The notes beneath the pieces are model-generated. The model worked only from the letters and a program-made list of their open reading frames with translations. It was not told the origin of the DNA and did not search any database. A stretch of DNA of 64,000 nucleotides, taken from an uncultured Erysipelotrichaceae bacterium. GTDB lineage: Bacteria; Bacillota_I; Bacilli_A; Erysipelotrichales; Erysipelotrichaceae. Below are positions 2,951 to 34,061 of the stretch, in pieces; the stretch's first letter is position 1; each line of letters begins with the position of its first letter. The position numbers and the translations under genes are program-made. Location of the stretch: NCBI GenBank assembly GCA_964418835.1, contig CAYQNJ010000001.1, positions 52,630-116,629 on the forward strand. The letters are read 5' to 3'.

Positions 2951-5900
2951 ATGAATATATTAGAAATAATGGGAGATATTCCTTTAAATACGAGCGATAA
3001 GATAACATTTGGTCAAATTGATATAATAAATATCACATTTTTTAAAAATAGAAACTTATTAAATTTAGATTTAAATAGTAATTTACCTTTAACATTTGAG
3101 AATTATTCAAAGATTAAAAAAATGTTGGAGAAGAAATTAGAAGTAAATGTAGAAATTAAAATTGATACACAATCTTCTAGATATGATTTAAATACTATAA
3201 GTAAATATATTGACTATATTACAAAATCAAATAAAGAATTATTCTTGTTTAAAAACATTCTTTTTAAGTATGATGATGATAAAAAAAGTGTTGAATTTTT
3301 ACTAGATAATAATATTAATATAAATAAATTAAAATCAAAAGTAGATTTTTATATTAATAAACTAAATGATTTTGGATTCAAGAATATTTTGATTGATATA
3401 ATTGAAAGTAACATTATAGATATACCTGAAGAAAAGGTTGTTATTATAAAGGAAAATCAAAAGAATAATTTTTCTAATTTTAAAAAGAATAACAGAATTA
3501 AACTTGAAGATTATTCTTTAGTTAATTTAGCAAATTTAGAAAATAATGAAGAATTTCATGTAAAGTTTACAGGCAAAATATTATCTATAAATTTAACAAC
3601 TTCAAAAGCATCTAATAATAGAATTGCTACATTACTTGTTACAGATGGTAATGGTGGAATAAATGCGAAGATATTTGAAAGAAAAGATGATAAACCTGAA
3701 AAATTTGATAGTTTAAAGAAAGGGAAGTCATTTATATTTTATGGAGATATAGTATTTGATTCCTTTAGTAAGGAATATATTTTTAAAATAGGTAAAATGG
3801 TTCCTTATGTTGAAAATAAAATTGTTGATGATGCTATAGATAAAAGAATTGAACTTCACCTACATACAACTATGTCAGAAATGGATGGAGTATGTGATGT
3901 AGATGAAGTTATTGAACATGCTTTTAATTTAGGTCATGAAGGAGTTACTATTTGTGATCATGGTTCTGTTCAAGCTTTTGCAAAAGCACATAATAAAGCA
4001 AAATCTTTACTTTCTAAACACAAAGATAGAAGTTTCAAAGTTTTATATGGTTGTGAGATGTATATGACTGATAAGAATCTATCAATAGTTCAAAATGCAA
4101 ATGACTCTTTATTAAGAGATCAAACTTATGTAATCTTTGACTTAGAAACAACTGGTTTATCAAATCATTTTGATAGGATTATTGAATTTGGGGCGATTAA
4201 AATAAAAAACCATGAAGAAATAGGTAAACTACAAATGTTTATAAACCCTAATATGGATATACCTGAGTTTATTTCGTTTAAAACAAATATTACAAATAGC
4301 ATGGTTGATAATGAACCTGAATTTAAAGATGTTATTGATAAAATTCTAAGCTTTATTGGTGATAGTGTTTTAGTTGCACATAATGCTGATTTTGACTTTG
4401 GATTTCTTAATGAATCTCTAAAAAGAATAGGAAAAGAAGAATTAAAGAATCCTGTTATTGATACTCTAGACTTAGCAAGGGCTCTTCATAGTGATAGAAG
4501 GGCATACAGGCTTGGTAATATAGCTAGACTATATGGTGTAACCTATGATGAAGATGTGGCTCATAGAGCAGATTATGATGCTAAAGTGCTTGGTGATACT
4601 TTTTTAAGAATGTTAAATGAAGTCGATAAGAAGGGTGCATACACTTTAAATGAACTACAAAAACTACAAGATGAAAATGCTTTTTCTAAAAATAGGGCAA
4701 GTCATGTTGTTGTATTAGCTAAGAATCAAAAAGGAATTAAAGATTTATATGAACTTGTAACTACTTCTAATACAAAATCTCTTGCAGTTTTTGGAAAAGG
4801 TGGAGAGGAATTCTTATCTGAACCTCGTATATTTAAAGAAGGATTAAATGATAATCGTGAAAACCTATTACTTGGTTCTGCTTGTTTAAATGGTGATGTT
4901 TTTGAGTGTGCTGCTAATAAGGATCAATCATCATTAGAAAAAGCTATTTCATTTTATGATTATATAGAAATTCAACCTTTAGATAACTATAGTAATCTAT
5001 TAGTTATGAATTCTATAAAAGATATGGAAAGATTAAAAGAAATAATTAGAAGAATAATAGATACATCAGTTAAGCTTAATAAAACTATAGTTGCTACTGG
5101 TGATGTTCACTATTTAATACCTGAACAAAAGAAGTTTAGAGATGTATATATTAATTCACAAGGGGTAGGTGGAGTTAGACATCCTTTATATATTAGAAAT
5201 AAAAATTTAAGAAAATCAAATATAAATCCTAATCAACATTTTAGAACGACTAATGAAATGTTAGATTGTTTTAGTTGGTTAAATGATCCAGATTTATCTA
5301 AAATGTTGGTTATTGATAATACAAAATTAATTTTTGATAGTATAGAGTATGTATTACCTGTACCTGAAGGTACATATCCACCAATAGTAGAAGGATCTGC
5401 TGAAAAACTGAGAAATGTTTGTTATGTTAATGCGCATAAAATTTATGGTAAAAAACTACCTGATATTGTTAGTAAAAGATTAGAAAGAGAGCTTGATAGT
5501 ATCATAAGCAATGGATATTCTGTTGTTTATTATATTTCACATTTACTTGTTAAAAAGAGTAATGAAGATGGATATTTAGTTGGTTCAAGAGGTTCTGTTG
5601 GCTCATCTTTTGTTGCTACCATGTCAAATATTACTGAAGTAAATCCACTAAGCCCTCATTATATTTGTAAAAACTGTGGTCATAATGAGTTTGTTTTAGA
5701 TGGCAGTGTTGCTTCTGGTTATGATTTAGAAGATAAACCATGTCCTAAGTGCAATGAAATAATGAAGGGTGATGGACATAATATACCATTTGAAACTTTC
5801 TTAGGGTTTAAAGGTGATAAAGTTCCAGATATTGATCTTAACTTTTCAAATGAGTATCAAGCTAAGGCACATAATTTTACTAAGGAAGTCTTTGGAGAAG

Positions 5901-28547: not shown

Positions 28548-28775
28548 TGACTTTAAAGATAAATTTTAATATTATATTAATGTACGTTGAAACAAAGTAG
28601 TAGGTAACTAAAGTTATATAGAGAGTCAAGGGTTGGTGAAACTTGATTAATTATGTTATTGAACTTGTTGTGGAGTAATGTAATTCCTGCTTTAAAGGAT
28701 TTTGAGTGCATGTTTAACATGAACTAAGGTGGTACCGCGTAATTATTACGTCCTTAGAATGGACGTTTTTTATTT
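28548..28775 (+). promoter_or_regulatory. Promoter plus T-box leader of leuS (candidate CUU Leu specifier)
   Basis: TTGACT-17-TATTAT promoter; Stem I start GUUGAAACAAAGUAGUAGG; T-box gaactaaggtggtaccgcg 28721-28739; terminator acgtcc...ggacgt + T-run 28749-28775. Confidence 0.8.
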
Positions 28776-28785
28776 TGGAGGAAAT

Positions 28786-31182
28786 ATGACATATAACCAT
28801 AAAGAAGTTGAAAAAAGATGGCAAAATTATTGGGAAGAGAATGAAACATTTAAAACTGATGTTTATGATGAGGTAAAACCTCCATATTATGTTTTAGATA
28901 TGTTTCCTTATCCAAGTGGACAAGGGCTACATGTAGGACATCCTGAAGGGTATACTGCAACTGATATCATTGCTAGATACAAAAGAATGAAGGGATTTAA
29001 TGTACTACATCCAATGGGATGGGATGCTTTTGGATTACCTGCAGAACAATATGCATTAAATACTGGTAATCATCCAGCGCAATTTACTAAGGATAATATT
29101 GATAATTTTAGAAGACAAATAAAACAAATTGGTCTTTCGTATGATTGGAGTAGAGAAATTAGTACTACAGATCCTGAATACTACAAATGGACGCAATGGA
29201 TATTTATCCAACTTTATAACAAAGGTTTAGCTTATGTAGATGAAATACCTGTTAACTGGTGTCCTGAATTAGGTACTGTTTTAGCAAATGAAGAAGTAAT
29301 TAATGGTAGAAGTGAAAGAGGTAATTTCCCTGTAATTAGAAAACCAATGAGACAATGGATATTAAAAATTACTGAATATGCTGAACAATTGTTAAATGAT
29401 TTAGATTTATGTGATTGGCCACAGTCTACTAAAGAGATGCAAATTAATTGGATTGGTAAGTCTGTTGGTTCTAATGTTGTATTTAAAATAGATGGATTTG
29501 ATAAAGAGTTTACAGTTTTTACTACAAGAGCTGATACTTTATTTGGTTGTACTTATTGTGTCTTAGCACCTGAACATCCTTTTGTGTTAGATATTACTAG
29601 TGAAGAACAATTACCAAAAGTAAGAGAATATATTGAACAAATTAAATCCAAATCAGATTTAGAAAGAACTGATTTGAATAAAGATAAGACAGGTATATTT
29701 ACTGGTGCTTATGCAATAAACCCAGTAAATAATAAAAAAGTTCCTATTTGGATTGCAGACTATGTATTATCTAGTTATGGTACTGGTGCTATAATGGCTG
29801 TTCCAGCACATGATAGTAGGGACTATGAATTTGCACGTAAATTTAATTTAGATATTATCGAAGTTTTAAAAGGTGGCGATATTACTAAAGAAGTATATGA
29901 AAAAGATGGAGAACATGTTAATAGTGATTTCTTAAATGGGTTAAATAAAGATGATGCTATTAAAGTGATGAATGAATGGTTAGTAGAAAATAATGTTGGT
30001 AATCCTAAGACTACTTATAAGTTAAGAGACTGGTTATTTTCTAGACAAAGATATTGGGGAGAACCGATTCCTATAATTATTATGGAAGATGGTACTTTAA
30101 GAACTGTAGATATTGAAGAGTTACCATTAGAACTACCAGATATCACAAATTATAAACCATCAAATGATGGTGAAAGTCCTCTAGCAAATGCTGGGGATTG
30201 GTTGGAAGTTGAAATTGATGGAGTAAAGGGTAGAAGAGAAACTAACACAATGCCACAATGGGCAGGAAGTTGTTGGTATTACATGCGTTTTATTGATCCA
30301 AAAAATACTGAAACATTCTGTGATAAAAAACTGTTAGAAAAATGGTTGCCTGTTGATTTGTATGTGGGTGGTGCTGAACATGCTGTATTACACTTGTTAT
30401 ATGCTAGATTCTGGCATAAGGTTTTATATGATTTAGGTCATGTTCCTACAAAAGAACCATTTAAGAAGTTATTTCATCAAGGAATGATACTAGGTTCTAA
30501 TGGTGAAAAGATGAGTAAGTCAAGAGGGAATGTTGTTAATCCTGATGAAATATTTGAATCTCATGGAGCTGATTCATTAAGAGTTTATGAAATGTTTATG
30601 GGTCCATTAGAAGCTTCTTTACCTTGGAATGATAGTGGGTTAGATGGTACTAAAAAATGGTTGGATAGAGTTTATAGATTATTTGTTGAACAAGACAAAT
30701 TAAGTGAGGTAAATGATCATAGCTTAGATTATGTATATAATGCAACTGTTAAGAAAGTAAGTACTGATATAGAATCACTAAATTTAAATACTGCTATTTC
30801 TCAAATGATGGTATTTATTAATGAATGTTATAAAGCTGAAACCATTTATAGGCCGTATGCTTTAGGTTTTATTCAAATGTTTGCATGTTTTGCTCCTCAT
30901 TTAGGCGAAGAACTATGGTATATACTTGGTAATGAAAACACACTAACATATGAACCATGGCCAGAGTATGATGAAAGTAAATTAGAATTAGATGAAGTTG
31001 AAATTGTTGTGCAAGTTAGTGGTAAAGTTAGAGGAAAGTTTGTAATAGCTAAAGGTAGTGATGTAGAAACAGTTAAATCAAAAGCTATGGAAATACCAAG
31101 TGTAATTGCAAATTTAGAAGGTAAAACTATTATTAAAACTATCTTTATAAAAGATAAAATTGTAAATATAGTTGCTAAATAG
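28786..31182 (+). CDS. leuS: Leucyl-tRNA synthetase
   Basis: HMGH motif ([12 protein letters not shown]), KMSKS; RBS GGAGGA before ATG 28786 (the ORF track start at 28729 lies inside the T-box terminator). Confidence 0.95.
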
Positions 31183-31185
31183 AAT

Positions 31186-31224
31186 TTAAAGATGATTTAA
31201 TAAACTATTAAATCATCTTTTTTG
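31186..31224 (+). terminator. Rho-independent terminator after leuS
   Basis: aaagatgatttaa...ttaaatcatcttt hairpin + TTTTT. Confidence 0.8.
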
Positions 31225-31449
31225 TATATTAATATATTGTTTACTACTTTTAGATGGTTAATATTATCAAAAGTAAGGTAATATGACTAAAGTTATCATA
31301 AGTTAATCAAGAGTTATATTTAATGAAAAACTTATATGATCTCAAAATGATTTTATTAGAAGTATGACTTTTGAAGTAACTCTGAACATGTATATGTTGC
31401 TATTTTATCTCCAGATATAATAGAACTTTTATAATAGTTGTAATTACTG

Positions 31450-31490
31450 TTGACATAAAATCAATATGATATTAAAATGATATCATAAAG
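31450..31490 (+). promoter_or_regulatory. Promoter with a 10-bp perfect palindrome (ATGATATCAT) over the -10/+1 region, upstream of the SPFH/Arc pair
   Basis: TTGACA, 17-nt spacer, TAAAAT; palindrome atgatatcat immediately downstream, preceded by a direct copy atgatat. Confidence 0.5.
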
Positions 31491-31501
31491 AGGTGATTAT
31501 A

Positions 31502-32500
31502 ATGGAAGAGAAAATTTTAAAAGCTCCCAATGGTTTACTAACATTATTTATTCTATTTGTTTTGCATGTTCTAAATTTACTTATGTTTATTTTTGCAGTA
31601 TCAAAAGAAAATGCAATATTAGTTTTTTTATCGATTATTATATTTATTGTTTTATTTATAATGTTATTTGGTATAAAAGTATTAGATCCTCAAGAAGCTT
31701 TAGTTTTGACTTTATTTGGAAAATATTATGGTACTCTAAAAAAAGAGGGTATATATTATGTTAATCCATTTAGTGCTGCTGTTAACCCAGCTGCAAATAC
31801 AAGCTTAAGACAAAGTGGTGATGTTGATTCAAAAGGACTTGAAATACCAGGTACAACAGGAACTTCATATTCAGCAAAATCCTTTAGTAAAAAGATATCT
31901 TTAAAAATAATGACTTTAAACAATAACAGACAAAAAGTTAATGATTGCTTAGGAAATCCAGTTGAGATAGGTATAGCTGTTATATGGAGTGTAAAGGATA
32001 CTGCCAAAGCTGTATTTGCTGTAGATAATTATAAGGAGTTTTTATCCTTACAATGTGATGCAGCATTAAGAAATATAGTTAGAATATATTCATATGATGT
32101 TGCACAAAATGTTGACACAACTGGTGATGGTGAACCAGATGAAGGATCATTAAGAGGCTCAAGTGAAGTAGTCGCTAAAAGAATTAAAGAAGAAATTCAA
32201 TCTAGAGTTTATGAAGCTGGAATTGAAATAATTGAAGCTAGAATTACATATTTAGCTTATGCTCCAGAAATAGCAGCAGCTATGTTACAACGCCAACAAG
32301 CTTCTGCAATAATAGATGCAAGAAAAATGATTGTAGATGGTGCTGTGGGTATGGTTGAAATGGCTTTAGTTAAAATGAATGAAGGTGGAATTGTAAATCT
32401 TGATGAAGAAAGAAAGGCTGCAATGGTTTCAAACTTGTTAGTAGTATTATGCGGTAATAAGGATGCTCAACCAATTGTAAATTCTGGTAGTCTATACTAG
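31502..32500 (+). CDS. SPFH/Band-7 (stomatin/prohibitin-like) membrane protein
   Basis: Two N-terminal TM helices then a PF01145-like SPFH core with AEIAAAMLQRQQASAII coiled-coil segment; RBS AGAGGTG. Confidence 0.75.
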   Translation: MEEKILKAPNGLLTLFILFVLHVLNLLMFIFAVSKENAILVFLSIIIFIVLFIMLFGIKVLDPQEALVLTLFGKYYGTLKKEGIYYVNPFSAAVNPAANTSLRQSGDVDSKGLEIPGTTGTSYSAKSFSKKISLKIMTLNNNRQKVNDCLGNPVEIGIAVIWSVKDTAKAVFAVDNYKEFLSLQCDAALRNIVRIYSYDVAQNVDTTGDGEPDEGSLRGSSEVVAKRIKEEIQSRVYEAGIEIIEARITYLAYAPEIAAAMLQRQQASAIIDARKMIVDGAVGMVEMALVKMNEGGIVNLDEERKAAMVSNLLVVLCGNKDAQPIVNSGSLY

Positions 32501-32706
32501 TGAGCAATCTTGATGAAAAAAAACAAGTTCCATTAAGAATTTCTTCTAGATTATATTCACAAATAGCTTCGTGGGCTGAAGATGATTTTCGCTCAATAAA
32601 TGGTCAAATCGAATATTTATTATCAATGTGTGTTAAACAAAGAATTAAAAATGGTCAATATATTTCAAATGAAATAGATAATGATTTAGAAATAGAATTA
32701 GAGTAA
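32500..32706 (+). CDS. Arc/Mnt-type ribbon-helix-helix DNA-binding protein
   Basis: PLRISSRLYSQIASWAEDDFRSINGQIEYLL aligns residue-by-residue with phage P22 Arc (NLRWPREVLDLVRKVAEENGRSVNSEIYQRV); GTG start overlaps the SPFH stop codon. Confidence 0.65.
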   Translation: MSNLDEKKQVPLRISSRLYSQIASWAEDDFRSINGQIEYLLSMCVKQRIKNGQYISNEIDNDLEIELE

Positions 32707-32778
32707 CTATAAAAATAGTTACTTTTTTCTTTTATCAATAGAAGTATAATAAAGTTTTTGTTATAATCATTTACGTAT

Positions 32779-33510
32779 ATGGAAAACTTTATTGTAGAAA
32801 TCGAACAATTTGATGGTCCATTAGATCTAATGCTACATCTTATTAAAGAAAATAAGTTAGATCTTTTTGATTTAGATATTAGTTTACTAACAGATCAATA
32901 CTTGTTATATTTAAAAAAATTTAAAGATTTACATTTAGAAGTTGCAAGTGAGTATTTAGTAGAATTAGCGACTTTAATTGAATATAAAAGTAAAAAGCTT
33001 TTTCCTAAAGAAGAATCTAGTTTAGATAGTGAATATGAAGAAGATCCTAAAGATAGATTAGTTAGAAGGTTATTAGAATACCAACAATATAAAGAGGTTT
33101 CTAATGTTTTGGAGGATTATTATAAATCTAGACAACTACAACTTAGTAAGCCAATAAGTATTGAAGTAGATGATTGGATAAAACAAGTTAATGATATACC
33201 AATAGAAGGTAACCCGTATGATTTAGTTAAAGCAATGCAAAAATGTATGAGAAGATTACAATTAAGCAAACCTTTAGAAACTAAAATTACTAAAAAAGAA
33301 ATATCAATGGAAGAAAGAAGACTTCAAATTGTTTCTAGACTTTCTACTTTACCTAATACATTTAGTTTTGAAAGATTGTTAGATGATGCTAGCGATACAG
33401 ATATGGTTATATCTACATTTTTAGCTGTACTAGATTTAGTTAGATTACATACACTTTATTTCACAATTGATAGTGAAGAAACAATTTGGTTTACAAGAGG
33501 GAATAGTTAA
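32779..33510 (+). CDS. scpA: Segregation and condensation protein A
   Basis: FDGPLDLMLHLIKENKLDLFDLDISLLTDQYL canonical ScpA N-terminus. Confidence 0.9.
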   Translation: MENFIVEIEQFDGPLDLMLHLIKENKLDLFDLDISLLTDQYLLYLKKFKDLHLEVASEYLVELATLIEYKSKKLFPKEESSLDSEYEEDPKDRLVRRLLEYQQYKEVSNVLEDYYKSRQLQLSKPISIEVDDWIKQVNDIPIEGNPYDLVKAMQKCMRRLQLSKPLETKITKKEISMEERRLQIVSRLSTLPNTFSFERLLDDASDTDMVISTFLAVLDLVRLHTLYFTIDSEETIWFTRGNS

Positions 33511-34061
33511 TGGAAAATAGATCGCATATAAAGGCAGTATTTGAAGGGTTACTTTTTATAGTTGGTGATGAAGGTATTTCTAAAGAACAATTAAAAGATG
33601 TTTTAGAAATAACTTTTGAAGATATTGATGATGTTTTTAATGAATTACAACAATATTATTCAAATGATGATAGAGGAATTGAACTAGTTAACTATGGTGA
33701 TAATTATAAATTTTTATCTAAAGCTTTAGTTCATCCTTATGCACAAAAAATGTTTCAAAATACAAAACAATCAGGTCTATCTCAAGCAGCATTAGAAACT
33801 TTAGCTATAATTGCTTATAAACAACCTATAACTAGAGTAGAAATAGAAGAGATTAGAGGTGTTGGAGCAGATATGATGTTACGAAAACTTCTTGCTAGAG
33901 ATTTAATTAAAGAATCAGGAAGAAGTGAAGCACCAGGAAGACCTATACTATATGAAGTAACTGAAGAATTTATGGATACATTTAAATTAATAAGTTTAGA
34001 AGAATTGCCAGAATTACCTAATTTTAATTTGGAAGATAGTAATGAAAACTTATTTGATTAA
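33510..34061 (+). CDS. scpB: Segregation and condensation protein B
   Basis: Winged-helix ScpB; stop/start overlap with scpA. Confidence 0.9.
   Translation: MENRSHIKAVFEGLLFIVGDEGISKEQLKDVLEITFEDIDDVFNELQQYYSNDDRGIELVNYGDNYKFLSKALVHPYAQKMFQNTKQSGLSQAALETLAIIAYKQPITRVEIEEIRGVGADMMLRKLLARDLIKESGRSEAPGRPILYEVTEEFMDTFKLISLEELPELPNFNLEDSNENLFD

Follow-up and report, generated by a model that had tools for sequence, protein, structure and literature searches.

The subject of this analysis is a two-gene cassette that lies in a 64-kb window, which is the whole stretch of DNA analysed and comes from an uncultured Erysipelotrichaceae bacterium with a GC content of 26.8% across the stretch. The first gene codes for an SPFH/Band-7 protein, and the second codes for a protein of 68 amino acids that we predict to be an Arc-type ribbon-helix-helix (RHH) DNA-binding protein. 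A palindrome overlaps the promoter of the pair, and comparisons among related loci support the view that it is one half of a predicted double GATATC operator that is conserved with the gene pair across at least five phyla. Coordinates of the individual features are collected in Table 1.

The SPFH open reading frame (ORF) extends on the plus strand from 31493 or 31502 to 32500, and we take the ATG at 31502 to be the real start because a Shine-Dalgarno sequence stands in front of it. Homologues begin with MEEK, MQEK or MKEK at the equivalent ATG. The GTG start of the 68-codon ORF overlaps the TAG stop of the SPFH gene by one nucleotide (TAGTG), as a sequence-only reading of this DNA had noted. 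A stem-loop that overlaps the TAA stop of the small gene closes the cassette, with a predicted folding free energy of -11.5 kcal/mol (z -3.06) that none of 200 shuffled sequences equalled. The consensus scan missed this probable terminator, whose stem has too few G-C pairs. With its own promoter, two genes and a closing hairpin, the cassette thus forms a discrete promoter-operator-gene-gene-terminator unit.

Table 1. Features of the SPFH-RHH cassette and its neighbours; positions are those of the window.
Feature	Position	Strand	Basis
-35 hexamer TTGACA of the cassette promoter	31450..31455	+	promoter scan
Box 1, TGATATTA, differing by one base from the consensus palindrome TGATATCA	31467..31474	.	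sequence read, comparison
-10 hexamer TAAAAT (end of box 1, AAA spacer and first base of box 2)	31473..31478	+	
Box 2, TGATATCA, perfectly palindromic, across the expected start of transcription	31478..31485	.	sequence read, comparison
Shine-Dalgarno sequence GAGGTG, 6 nucleotides 5' of the SPFH ATG	31490..31495	+	sequence read
SPFH/Band-7 gene, 332 amino acids, product ending ...QPIVNSGSLY	31502..32500	+	Pfam Band_7, hydropathy, alignment
Predicted Arc-type RHH gene, 68 amino acids, RHH core at about residues 7-50, then acidic tail	32500..32706	+	
Probable intrinsic terminator, 11-bp AT-rich stem-loop (32700-32725) and U-rich run	32700..32733	+	RNA fold
Degenerate second double box, TGATCTCA-aaa-TGATTTTA (TGATCTCAaaaTGATTTTA), three mismatches	31337..31355	.	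direct repeat
leuS, on one side of the cassette	28729..31182		
scpA/scpB, on the other side of the cassette	32779..34061		

Assignment of the first gene to the SPFH/Band-7 group, which the sequence-only reading had already proposed, is borne out by a match of its product to Pfam Band_7 (PF01145) with an E value of 9e-23 and 81.6 bits, compared with a cut-off of 23.6. Both hallmarks of the SPFH superfamily, namely a Band_7 match above the gathering score and an N-terminal membrane anchor, are present, the latter in the form of two hydrophobic segments at about residues 10-33 and 38-60 of the hydropathy profile. Alignment reveals that the helical C-terminal half is conserved, and the subfamily is recognisable by the C-terminus ...QPVVN.G.L(Y/H). 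Orthologues are 63-77% identical among 89 loci from GTDB genomes and metagenomes that were fetched by means of the small protein and that represent Clostridia families, Erysipelotrichales, Peptostreptococcus and some Bacilli, and they are 37-48% identical in other phyla. Solved SPFH proteins are only weakly similar to this clade (PH1511, E 5e-4; HflK, E 9e-3), and the NCBIfam models likewise give only weak HflK/C matches. No known toxin domain was found in the protein, for which Band_7 is the sole Pfam match.

The small protein belongs to a large family: at E ≤0.01, 6245 database clusters match it, and its members come from at least 597 GTDB species. Its residues 7-50 are nearly invariant among homologues, and we judge the small ORF to be real and strongly constrained. 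All 34 close homologues that were compared with the Pfam RHH clan match ParD_like, 33 match RHH_5 (best E 8e-6), five match HicB and three match Arc, and some database members carry a precomputed match to PF07878 or PF03869. A second, shorter branch of 54-63 amino acids is found in Bacillaceae, and NCBI labels its members as ‘Arc family DNA-binding protein’ or ‘HicB family antitoxin’; the ‘Arc family’ name is also given to relatives in Bacteroidota. When a profile of 60 sequences from the two branches was compared with the PDB, the eight best matches were all Arc entries, aligned over Arc residues 5-51 (1arq, E 0.003; 9pio_G, E 8e-4; single-chain Arc 1u9p, E 3e-7). A first, narrower profile found nothing relevant in the PDB, and thus only the broader one reached Arc. 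An hhalign comparison of the family with P22 Arc gave an E value of 5e-4, whereas a comparison with Mnt did not reach significance.

Arc and the window protein align without gaps and in the same numbering, with identical residues at nine positions (Q9, L12, R13, A26, E27, R31, S32, N34 and I37), in agreement with the near position-by-position match that the sequence-only reading had described. Residues K7, P11, L12, R13, R31, S32 and N34 are invariant in the 60 sequences of the two branches, and the L-R and RS.N elements are kept in Deinococcus, Bacteroidota, Alphaproteobacteria and Actinomycetota. Two hallmarks of RHH proteins are accordingly seen, these being a basic DNA-reading residue in the N-terminal beta-strand and an R-S-x-N turn that caps helix B. 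On the basis of these alignments and profile matches, we classify the 68-residue product as a predicted Arc-type RHH protein.

Beyond the RHH core, the window clade has a conserved acidic tail of 18 residues (KNGKYVSDEIDxPLEIDI), the tail of the Bacillaceae proteins is no more than short and basic, and members from other phyla have tails that differ again. The SPFH proteins of the Clostridia/Erysipelotrichia clade carry insertions of 42 amino acids (at about residues 93-135) and nine amino acids (203-211, NVDTTGDGEPDEG). Bacillaceae and Deinococcus members are devoid of both insertions and also of the acidic RHH tail (residues 51-68 of the small protein). The clade-specific insertions and tail that occur together may represent a clade-specific contact between the two proteins.

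Several other observations concern the annotation of the small family. Many of its members (including P0003, P0006, P0029 and the gene at 2995-3192 of locus L091) are named ‘PTS ascorbate transporter subunit IIC’ by NCBI, which on Arc-like proteins of 65-70 amino acids is clearly a propagated misannotation. A weak Pfam match to DnaB_2 (‘replication initiation and membrane attachment’) occurs in 30 of the 34 homologues (best E 4e-4) and is probably helix-level noise. The 410-residue protein P0276 was considered as a natural SPFH-RHH fusion and was rejected as an internal duplication.

An SPFH orthologue lies directly upstream of the small gene in all 89 loci. The distance from the SPFH stop to the RHH start, counted in 83 non-redundant loci, falls between -1 and +3 nucleotides in 57 of them (-1 in 20 loci, +1 in 23, +2 in seven and +3 in seven), and the overlap of one nucleotide recurs in Nonomuraea and Rhizobium. 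In the Bacillaceae/Carboxydothermus branch, the small gene follows a Band_7 gene for a protein of 280-298 amino acids in five of five loci, with a gap of 6-16 nucleotides. When annotated plasmid and replicon records were searched with the SPFH protein as the starting point, members were added from Deinococcus, from Qipengyuania, Bosea and Rhizobium, from Parabacteroides and Prevotella, and from Nonomuraea, and every QPVVN-type member examined had an Arc-like gene directly after it. The trio of SPFH gene, RHH gene and boxes is therefore represented in Bacillota, Deinococcota, Bacteroidota, Alphaproteobacteria and Actinomycetota, at GC contents of 27-73%. Distant SPFH proteins of P. amygdali (37% identity) and Vibrio campbellii (34%) have neither the QPVVN C-terminus nor the small gene nor the boxes.

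Clustering of the flanking ORFs of about 80 loci revealed no conserved third gene, with neighbours that differ from locus to locus, and NfeD is absent from the Pfam lists of these neighbours, such that the RHH gene is the sole conserved neighbour. The description of the arrangement as unusual in the sequence-only reading does not hold. Pairing with an RHH gene is instead the rule in this SPFH subfamily, which is widespread.

Some loci depart from the usual arrangement or context. In a few species, 330-560 nucleotides are inserted between the two genes (GTDB loci L016, 2431-2995, and L031, 2566-3010), and the insert of the former holds a YbjQ/UPF0145-like ORF and a small hydrophobic ORF. Plasmid pHN232-2 of P. 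aeruginosa (L229; NZ_CP151545.1, 10941-13979) carries a frameshifted SPFH copy of the Bacillaceae type with 40% GC that looks like foreign, decaying DNA. On plasmid pDrdIV of Deinococcus wulumuqiensis (L090), the cassette lies beside AbiEi/AbiEii, AbrB/Fic, an IS5 element and an ImmA/IrrE-HTH pair, and among the loci viewed no other context is clearly of a mobile or defence type. Carriage by a phage, as suggested by MT836356.1, was not accepted, this being an unverified and unannotated contig in which the cassette is cut at the contig end.

The best sigma-70-like site of the region is TTGACA-17-TAAAAT, which matches 11 of 12 consensus positions and implies an mRNA leader of about 16 nucleotides. 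Across the -10 hexamer and the start site lie two 8-bp boxes in the arrangement TGATATTA-aaa-TGATATCA, with centres 11 bp apart. The perfect 10-bp palindrome that the sequence-only reading had highlighted, ATGATATCAT (31477-31486), is indeed present and corresponds to box 2 extended by a base at either end, and the adjacent half-site repeat that it mentioned is real and corresponds to box 1. Within the window alone, the palindrome is no better than chance, as there are 153 perfect 10-bp palindromes in the 64 kb, and 14 matches to this one with a single mismatch were found where 9.2 are expected. Its significance therefore comes only from comparison with other loci.

This comparison is decisive. 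The best match to TGATATCAnnnTGATATCA in the 300 nucleotides upstream of the SPFH start was determined for 86 loci, of which 43 have no mismatch, 36 have one, five have two and one has three, and the double box is thus found in 85 of 86 loci (the exception is L082). No other double box with two or fewer mismatches is present in the 572 kb searched, the whole window included. These results favour the earlier suggestion that the palindrome is a plausible RHH operator. The consensus of 78 sites is (A/G)TGATAT(C/t)A-T(t/a)(t/a)-TGATATCA-aA, and the T at position 7 of box 1 in the window is also seen in 15 of these 78 sites. A TTGAC(A) or TTTACA element precedes the boxes in most related loci, usually at a distance of 14 nucleotides from box 1, with three nucleotides in some loci and 11 in the window, and despite this variation the boxes always cover the -10 element or the start site.

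The same boxes are retained at GC contents of 61-73% and behind Bacteroidota-type promoters. Examples are CAAAGTGATATCACTTTG and TGATATCAattTGATACA in the Deinococcus loci L090 and L091, TGATATAAataTGATATCAtaaTTATATCG in Qipengyuania (L222, 66% GC), AAAGTGATATCACTTT in Nonomuraea (L228, 71% GC) and TAATATCAaatTAATATCA in Parabacteroides (L223), which has a different type of promoter. Bacillaceae loci L092-L096 have three boxes with an 11-bp period. The identities of the two genes, their linkage, the sequence and position of the operator and the conservation of these elements together are direct computational observations.

A second, degenerate copy of the double box is located 130 bp upstream of the promoter/operator of the window, within a direct repeat of 30 nucleotides (31327-31356 compared with 31457-31486) whose copies are 77% identical. 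No good -35 element was found at the upstream copy, which may have arisen by duplication and then decayed, or may serve as an auxiliary operator.

To view the boxes independently of the genes, metagenome contigs were searched blindly for the exact double box, which returned 80 loci. In 38 of these, with GC contents of 27-73%, the double box is directly upstream of an SPFH gene, and a downstream RHH gene was detected in 32 of the 38, with no detectable RHH match in the other six. Among the remaining 42 loci, at least five (L100, L102, L110, L151 and L176) have the boxes where a FitA-like or Arc-like RHH gene begins that lacks an SPFH neighbour (Pfam E 1e-11 to 3e-6), and four more, also free of SPFH genes, are near PIN genes (L112, L152, L158 and L160). 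The box in these RHH and PIN loci is identical, TGATATCA-N3-TGATATCA, and in one further locus (L144) a box array is located just upstream of a gene for a ParA-type ATPase. Because the blind scan finds the boxes beside RHH genes, the motif is independently tied to this class of protein, and the GATATC double box appears to be a recurrent RHH target that is common to unrelated RHH modules. In addition, four loci (L135, L144, L148 and L150) contain arrays of at least four GATATC-type boxes with an 11-bp period that look like RHH-bound partition centromeres or iterons.

These data bear on the possibility that the GATATC boxes are simply promoter elements, or the site of some other global regulator, and that the small protein has nothing to do with DNA. 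Box 1 often coincides with an extended -10 element (TGnTATCAT), the AlphaFold models discussed below did not yield an RHH fold, and TGAT...ATCA resembles the outer arms of Fur-type boxes. However, the non-consensus C of TATCAT is kept in the boxes, which occur in tandem with an 11-bp period and shift in register relative to the -35 element. They also persist at 66-71% GC and in Bacteroidota, whose promoters differ, and this retention across phyla and base compositions indicates that the boxes are not mere promoter elements. Moreover, they track the RHH gene, being absent from the RHH-less SPFH genes of P. amygdali and Vibrio, and the blind search places them beside other RHH genes. We therefore regard this explanation as very improbable.

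The sequence-only reading had also likened the gene pair to an addiction or defence module. In this scenario, the cassette would be a toxin-antitoxin or abortive-infection module of reversed gene order, as in HigBA or HicAB, wherein the SPFH protein is a membrane-acting toxic effector and the RHH protein serves as antitoxin and operon repressor. The Pfam matches to ParD_like and HicB, the NCBI name ‘HicB family antitoxin’ and the use of the same double box by FitA-like RHH/PIN modules are compatible with this idea, as is the position of the pair on Deinococcus plasmid pDrdIV amid AbiE and Fic/AbrB modules and an insertion sequence element. Likewise, neighbours that vary between species and a patchy phyletic spread suggest horizontal transfer. 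Against this, neither protein matches any defence model of PADLOC-DB 2.0 at E ≤0.01, the partner gene is not of a toxin family and has only its Band_7 domain, and the RHH partners of Bacillaceae, at 54-58 amino acids, are essentially DNA-binding domains with no toxin-neutralising extension. Toxin-antitoxin pairs evolve fast, whereas this pair is unusually conserved across Clostridia, Erysipelotrichia and some Bacilli (SPFH 63-77% and RHH 62-81% identity). Only four cassette loci were found in the 2.9 million viral contigs of IMG/VR, and the neighbours are often housekeeping genes, as are leuS and scpAB in the window. The defence association consequently finds little support, and we consider such a function improbable.

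In our judgement, the cassette is probably a self-contained, negatively autoregulated two-gene unit in which an Arc-like repressor acts over the promoter to exert feedback on SPFH dosage. The sigma-70-type promoter would drive a bicistronic mRNA with a short leader, the first product of which is predicted to be a membrane-anchored SPFH scaffold and the second an Arc-like RHH protein. The RHH gene has a GTG start with only a weak GGTAG upstream and no good Shine-Dalgarno sequence. Because of this weak start, the poor ribosome-binding site and the fusion of the start to the SPFH stop, the RHH protein would probably be translated mainly by ribosomes that terminate on the SPFH gene, such that repressor output would follow SPFH output. 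From the sequence we infer that the RHH protein binds DNA and that the consequence is repression rather than activation. Since the box centres are one helical turn apart, its dimers may bind both boxes from the same face of the helix and cooperate as a dimer of dimers in the manner of Arc, and the invariant beta-strand residue R13, one per monomer, would be well placed to read the G/C pairs at box positions 2 and 7. With boxes that lie across both the -10 hexamer and the start site, bound RHH protein would exclude RNA polymerase. The loop might thereby keep SPFH dosage within a set range, a purpose that is plausible because over-production of flotillin disturbs division and shape in B. subtilis.

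Several points weigh against this proposal. By itself, the window protein falls below the Pfam gathering threshold (ParD_like, 21.6 versus 23 bits), and a single-sequence search of the PDB with it found nothing. Two AlphaFold2 monomer predictions, made with shallow alignments of 34 and 60 sequences, gave one helix (residues 16-46 or 16-48) at a predicted local distance difference test (pLDDT) score of about 70 and a predicted template modelling (pTM) score of 0.40, and no strand-helix-helix arrangement. RHH domains fold only as intertwined dimers, and because of this and the shallow alignments, we read the single-helix result as no clear verdict, although it does not count in favour of the RHH fold either and came from the one test that failed to back it. 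In most loci, box 1 can be read as an extended -10 element (TGnTATCAT) at the 14-nucleotide spacing, and part of its conservation could thus reflect promoter function. The search for double boxes spanned 572 kb, and a wider regulon may exist. Finally, a loop that has no input explains only poorly why a dedicated repressor should be needed in this SPFH subfamily but not in others.

In a more elaborate scheme, the cassette is a signal-responsive circuit or membrane-state sensor. SPFH assemblies that face the cytoplasm would capture or release the RHH protein, or the SPFH protein would modulate a protease that degrades it, and the state of the membrane would thereby set transcription, much as in the case of PspA and PspF; we consider this attractive but unlikely. 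It would extend autoregulation rather than displace it, and the notion that the conserved C-terminus ...QPVVN.G.LY holds or releases the RHH protein is similarly doubtful, as is the corollary that disturbance or saturation of the scaffold alters occupancy of the promoter, for which we would claim only a modest chance. The pairing is obligate across five phyla, and conservation of the SPFH C-terminus has exactly the same limits as the presence of the RHH partner, the C-terminus being lost in distant SPFH proteins that have no partner. Furthermore, the acidic RHH tail of Clostridia and Erysipelotrichia occurs together with the 42-residue SPFH insertion, and, given the topology of the hydrophobic hairpin, the N-terminus and the SPFH domain would both face one side of the membrane. 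Because a bare Arc domain lacks a ligand pocket, an input would presumably require a protein partner. Nevertheless, the RHH tail is conserved in one clade only, and simple autoregulation accounts for every observation made here.

Two observations concern the leuS gene that precedes the cassette. Directly 3' of leuS is a perfect inverted repeat of 15 nucleotides, AAAGATGATTTAATA / TATTAAATCATCTTT, at 31188-31220, followed by a run of T residues. This is probably the leuS terminator, and it was missed by the consensus scan, having few G-C pairs. The mechanically called leuS ORF begins with the GTG at 28729 and codes for 817 amino acids, including an odd extension of 19 residues (28729-28790), and the leuS genes called in sister contigs code for 798 amino acids, not 817. 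The true start is probably the downstream ATG, where the conserved protein begins.

To our knowledge, the functions of bacterial SPFH and flotillin-like proteins are poorly understood, and NfeD is the only operon partner that is widely recognised. The present findings define a distinct and uncharacterised SPFH subfamily by a predicted Arc-like repressor gene immediately downstream, a near-invariant predicted GATATC operator over the promoter and a conserved C-terminal SPFH motif. Its carriers include tractable organisms such as the B. cereus group, Priestia, Geobacillus and Parabacteroides, and the predicted circuit offers an experimental handle, in that deletion of the repressor or mutation of the boxes should de-repress the SPFH gene and a reporter could be used to find an inducer. 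The analysis also corrects the ‘subunit IIC’ name noted above and points to a double-box operator type that is shared with FitA-like antitoxins. If the sensor scheme were true, SPFH proteins would have a direct signalling role, embodied in a portable two-gene unit in five phyla.

Among known systems, the closest counterpart of the small protein is P22 Arc (Arc/Mnt, immI region; Pfam PF03869), which is of the same size class and is the best-matching solved protein. The Arc operator has two subsites one helical turn apart that overlap the promoter, and an Arc dimer of dimers represses its own transcription unit. The cassette resembles this arrangement in that its two predicted subsites are also one helical turn apart and overlap the promoter. 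In contrast, its operator consists of GATATC boxes, it is bacterial and either chromosomal or plasmid-borne rather than part of a phage immunity region, its partner is a membrane SPFH protein, and the small protein of the window clade has an additional acidic C-terminal tail. The Pfam Arc model, moreover, is matched by only three of the 34 close homologues.

The SPFH-NfeD operons (stomatin PH1511/PH1510, QmcA-YbbJ and FloT-NfeD2) similarly combine an SPFH scaffold with one small partner in a compact operon found across phyla, but the partner in the cassette is predicted to be a cytoplasmic DNA-binding RHH protein and not a membrane NfeD protease/OB-fold protein. In the main text of Hinderhofer et al. 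2009 (PMC2636767), SPFH-NfeD operons are those of subfamilies SPFH1, 2 and 5, no NfeD is given for subfamilies 3, 4 and 6-12, of which 6-12 are not described, and we found no mention there of an RHH partner for an SPFH protein. The literature that we searched likewise yielded no description of the SPFH-RHH pair or of its operator, and searches with the box sequence returned only primers with EcoRV sites.

The FitA-like/VapB antitoxins of FitAB and VapBC modules (Pfam FitA-like_RHH, PF22513) are RHH autorepressors for which the identical double box occurs in metagenomes. In those modules, however, the RHH gene precedes that of its partner, a PIN RNase toxin, whereas the window protein does not match the FitA-like model and its partner has no toxin domain. 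PspA-PspF and similar membrane-stress scaffolds may serve as a functional analogy only, in that an oligomeric membrane scaffold there has a transcription factor of its own that sets its expression. There is no homology between the two systems, and the class of regulator is another one. Autoregulation by RHH proteins is a familiar theme, and what is new is the partnership with an SPFH protein and its breadth.

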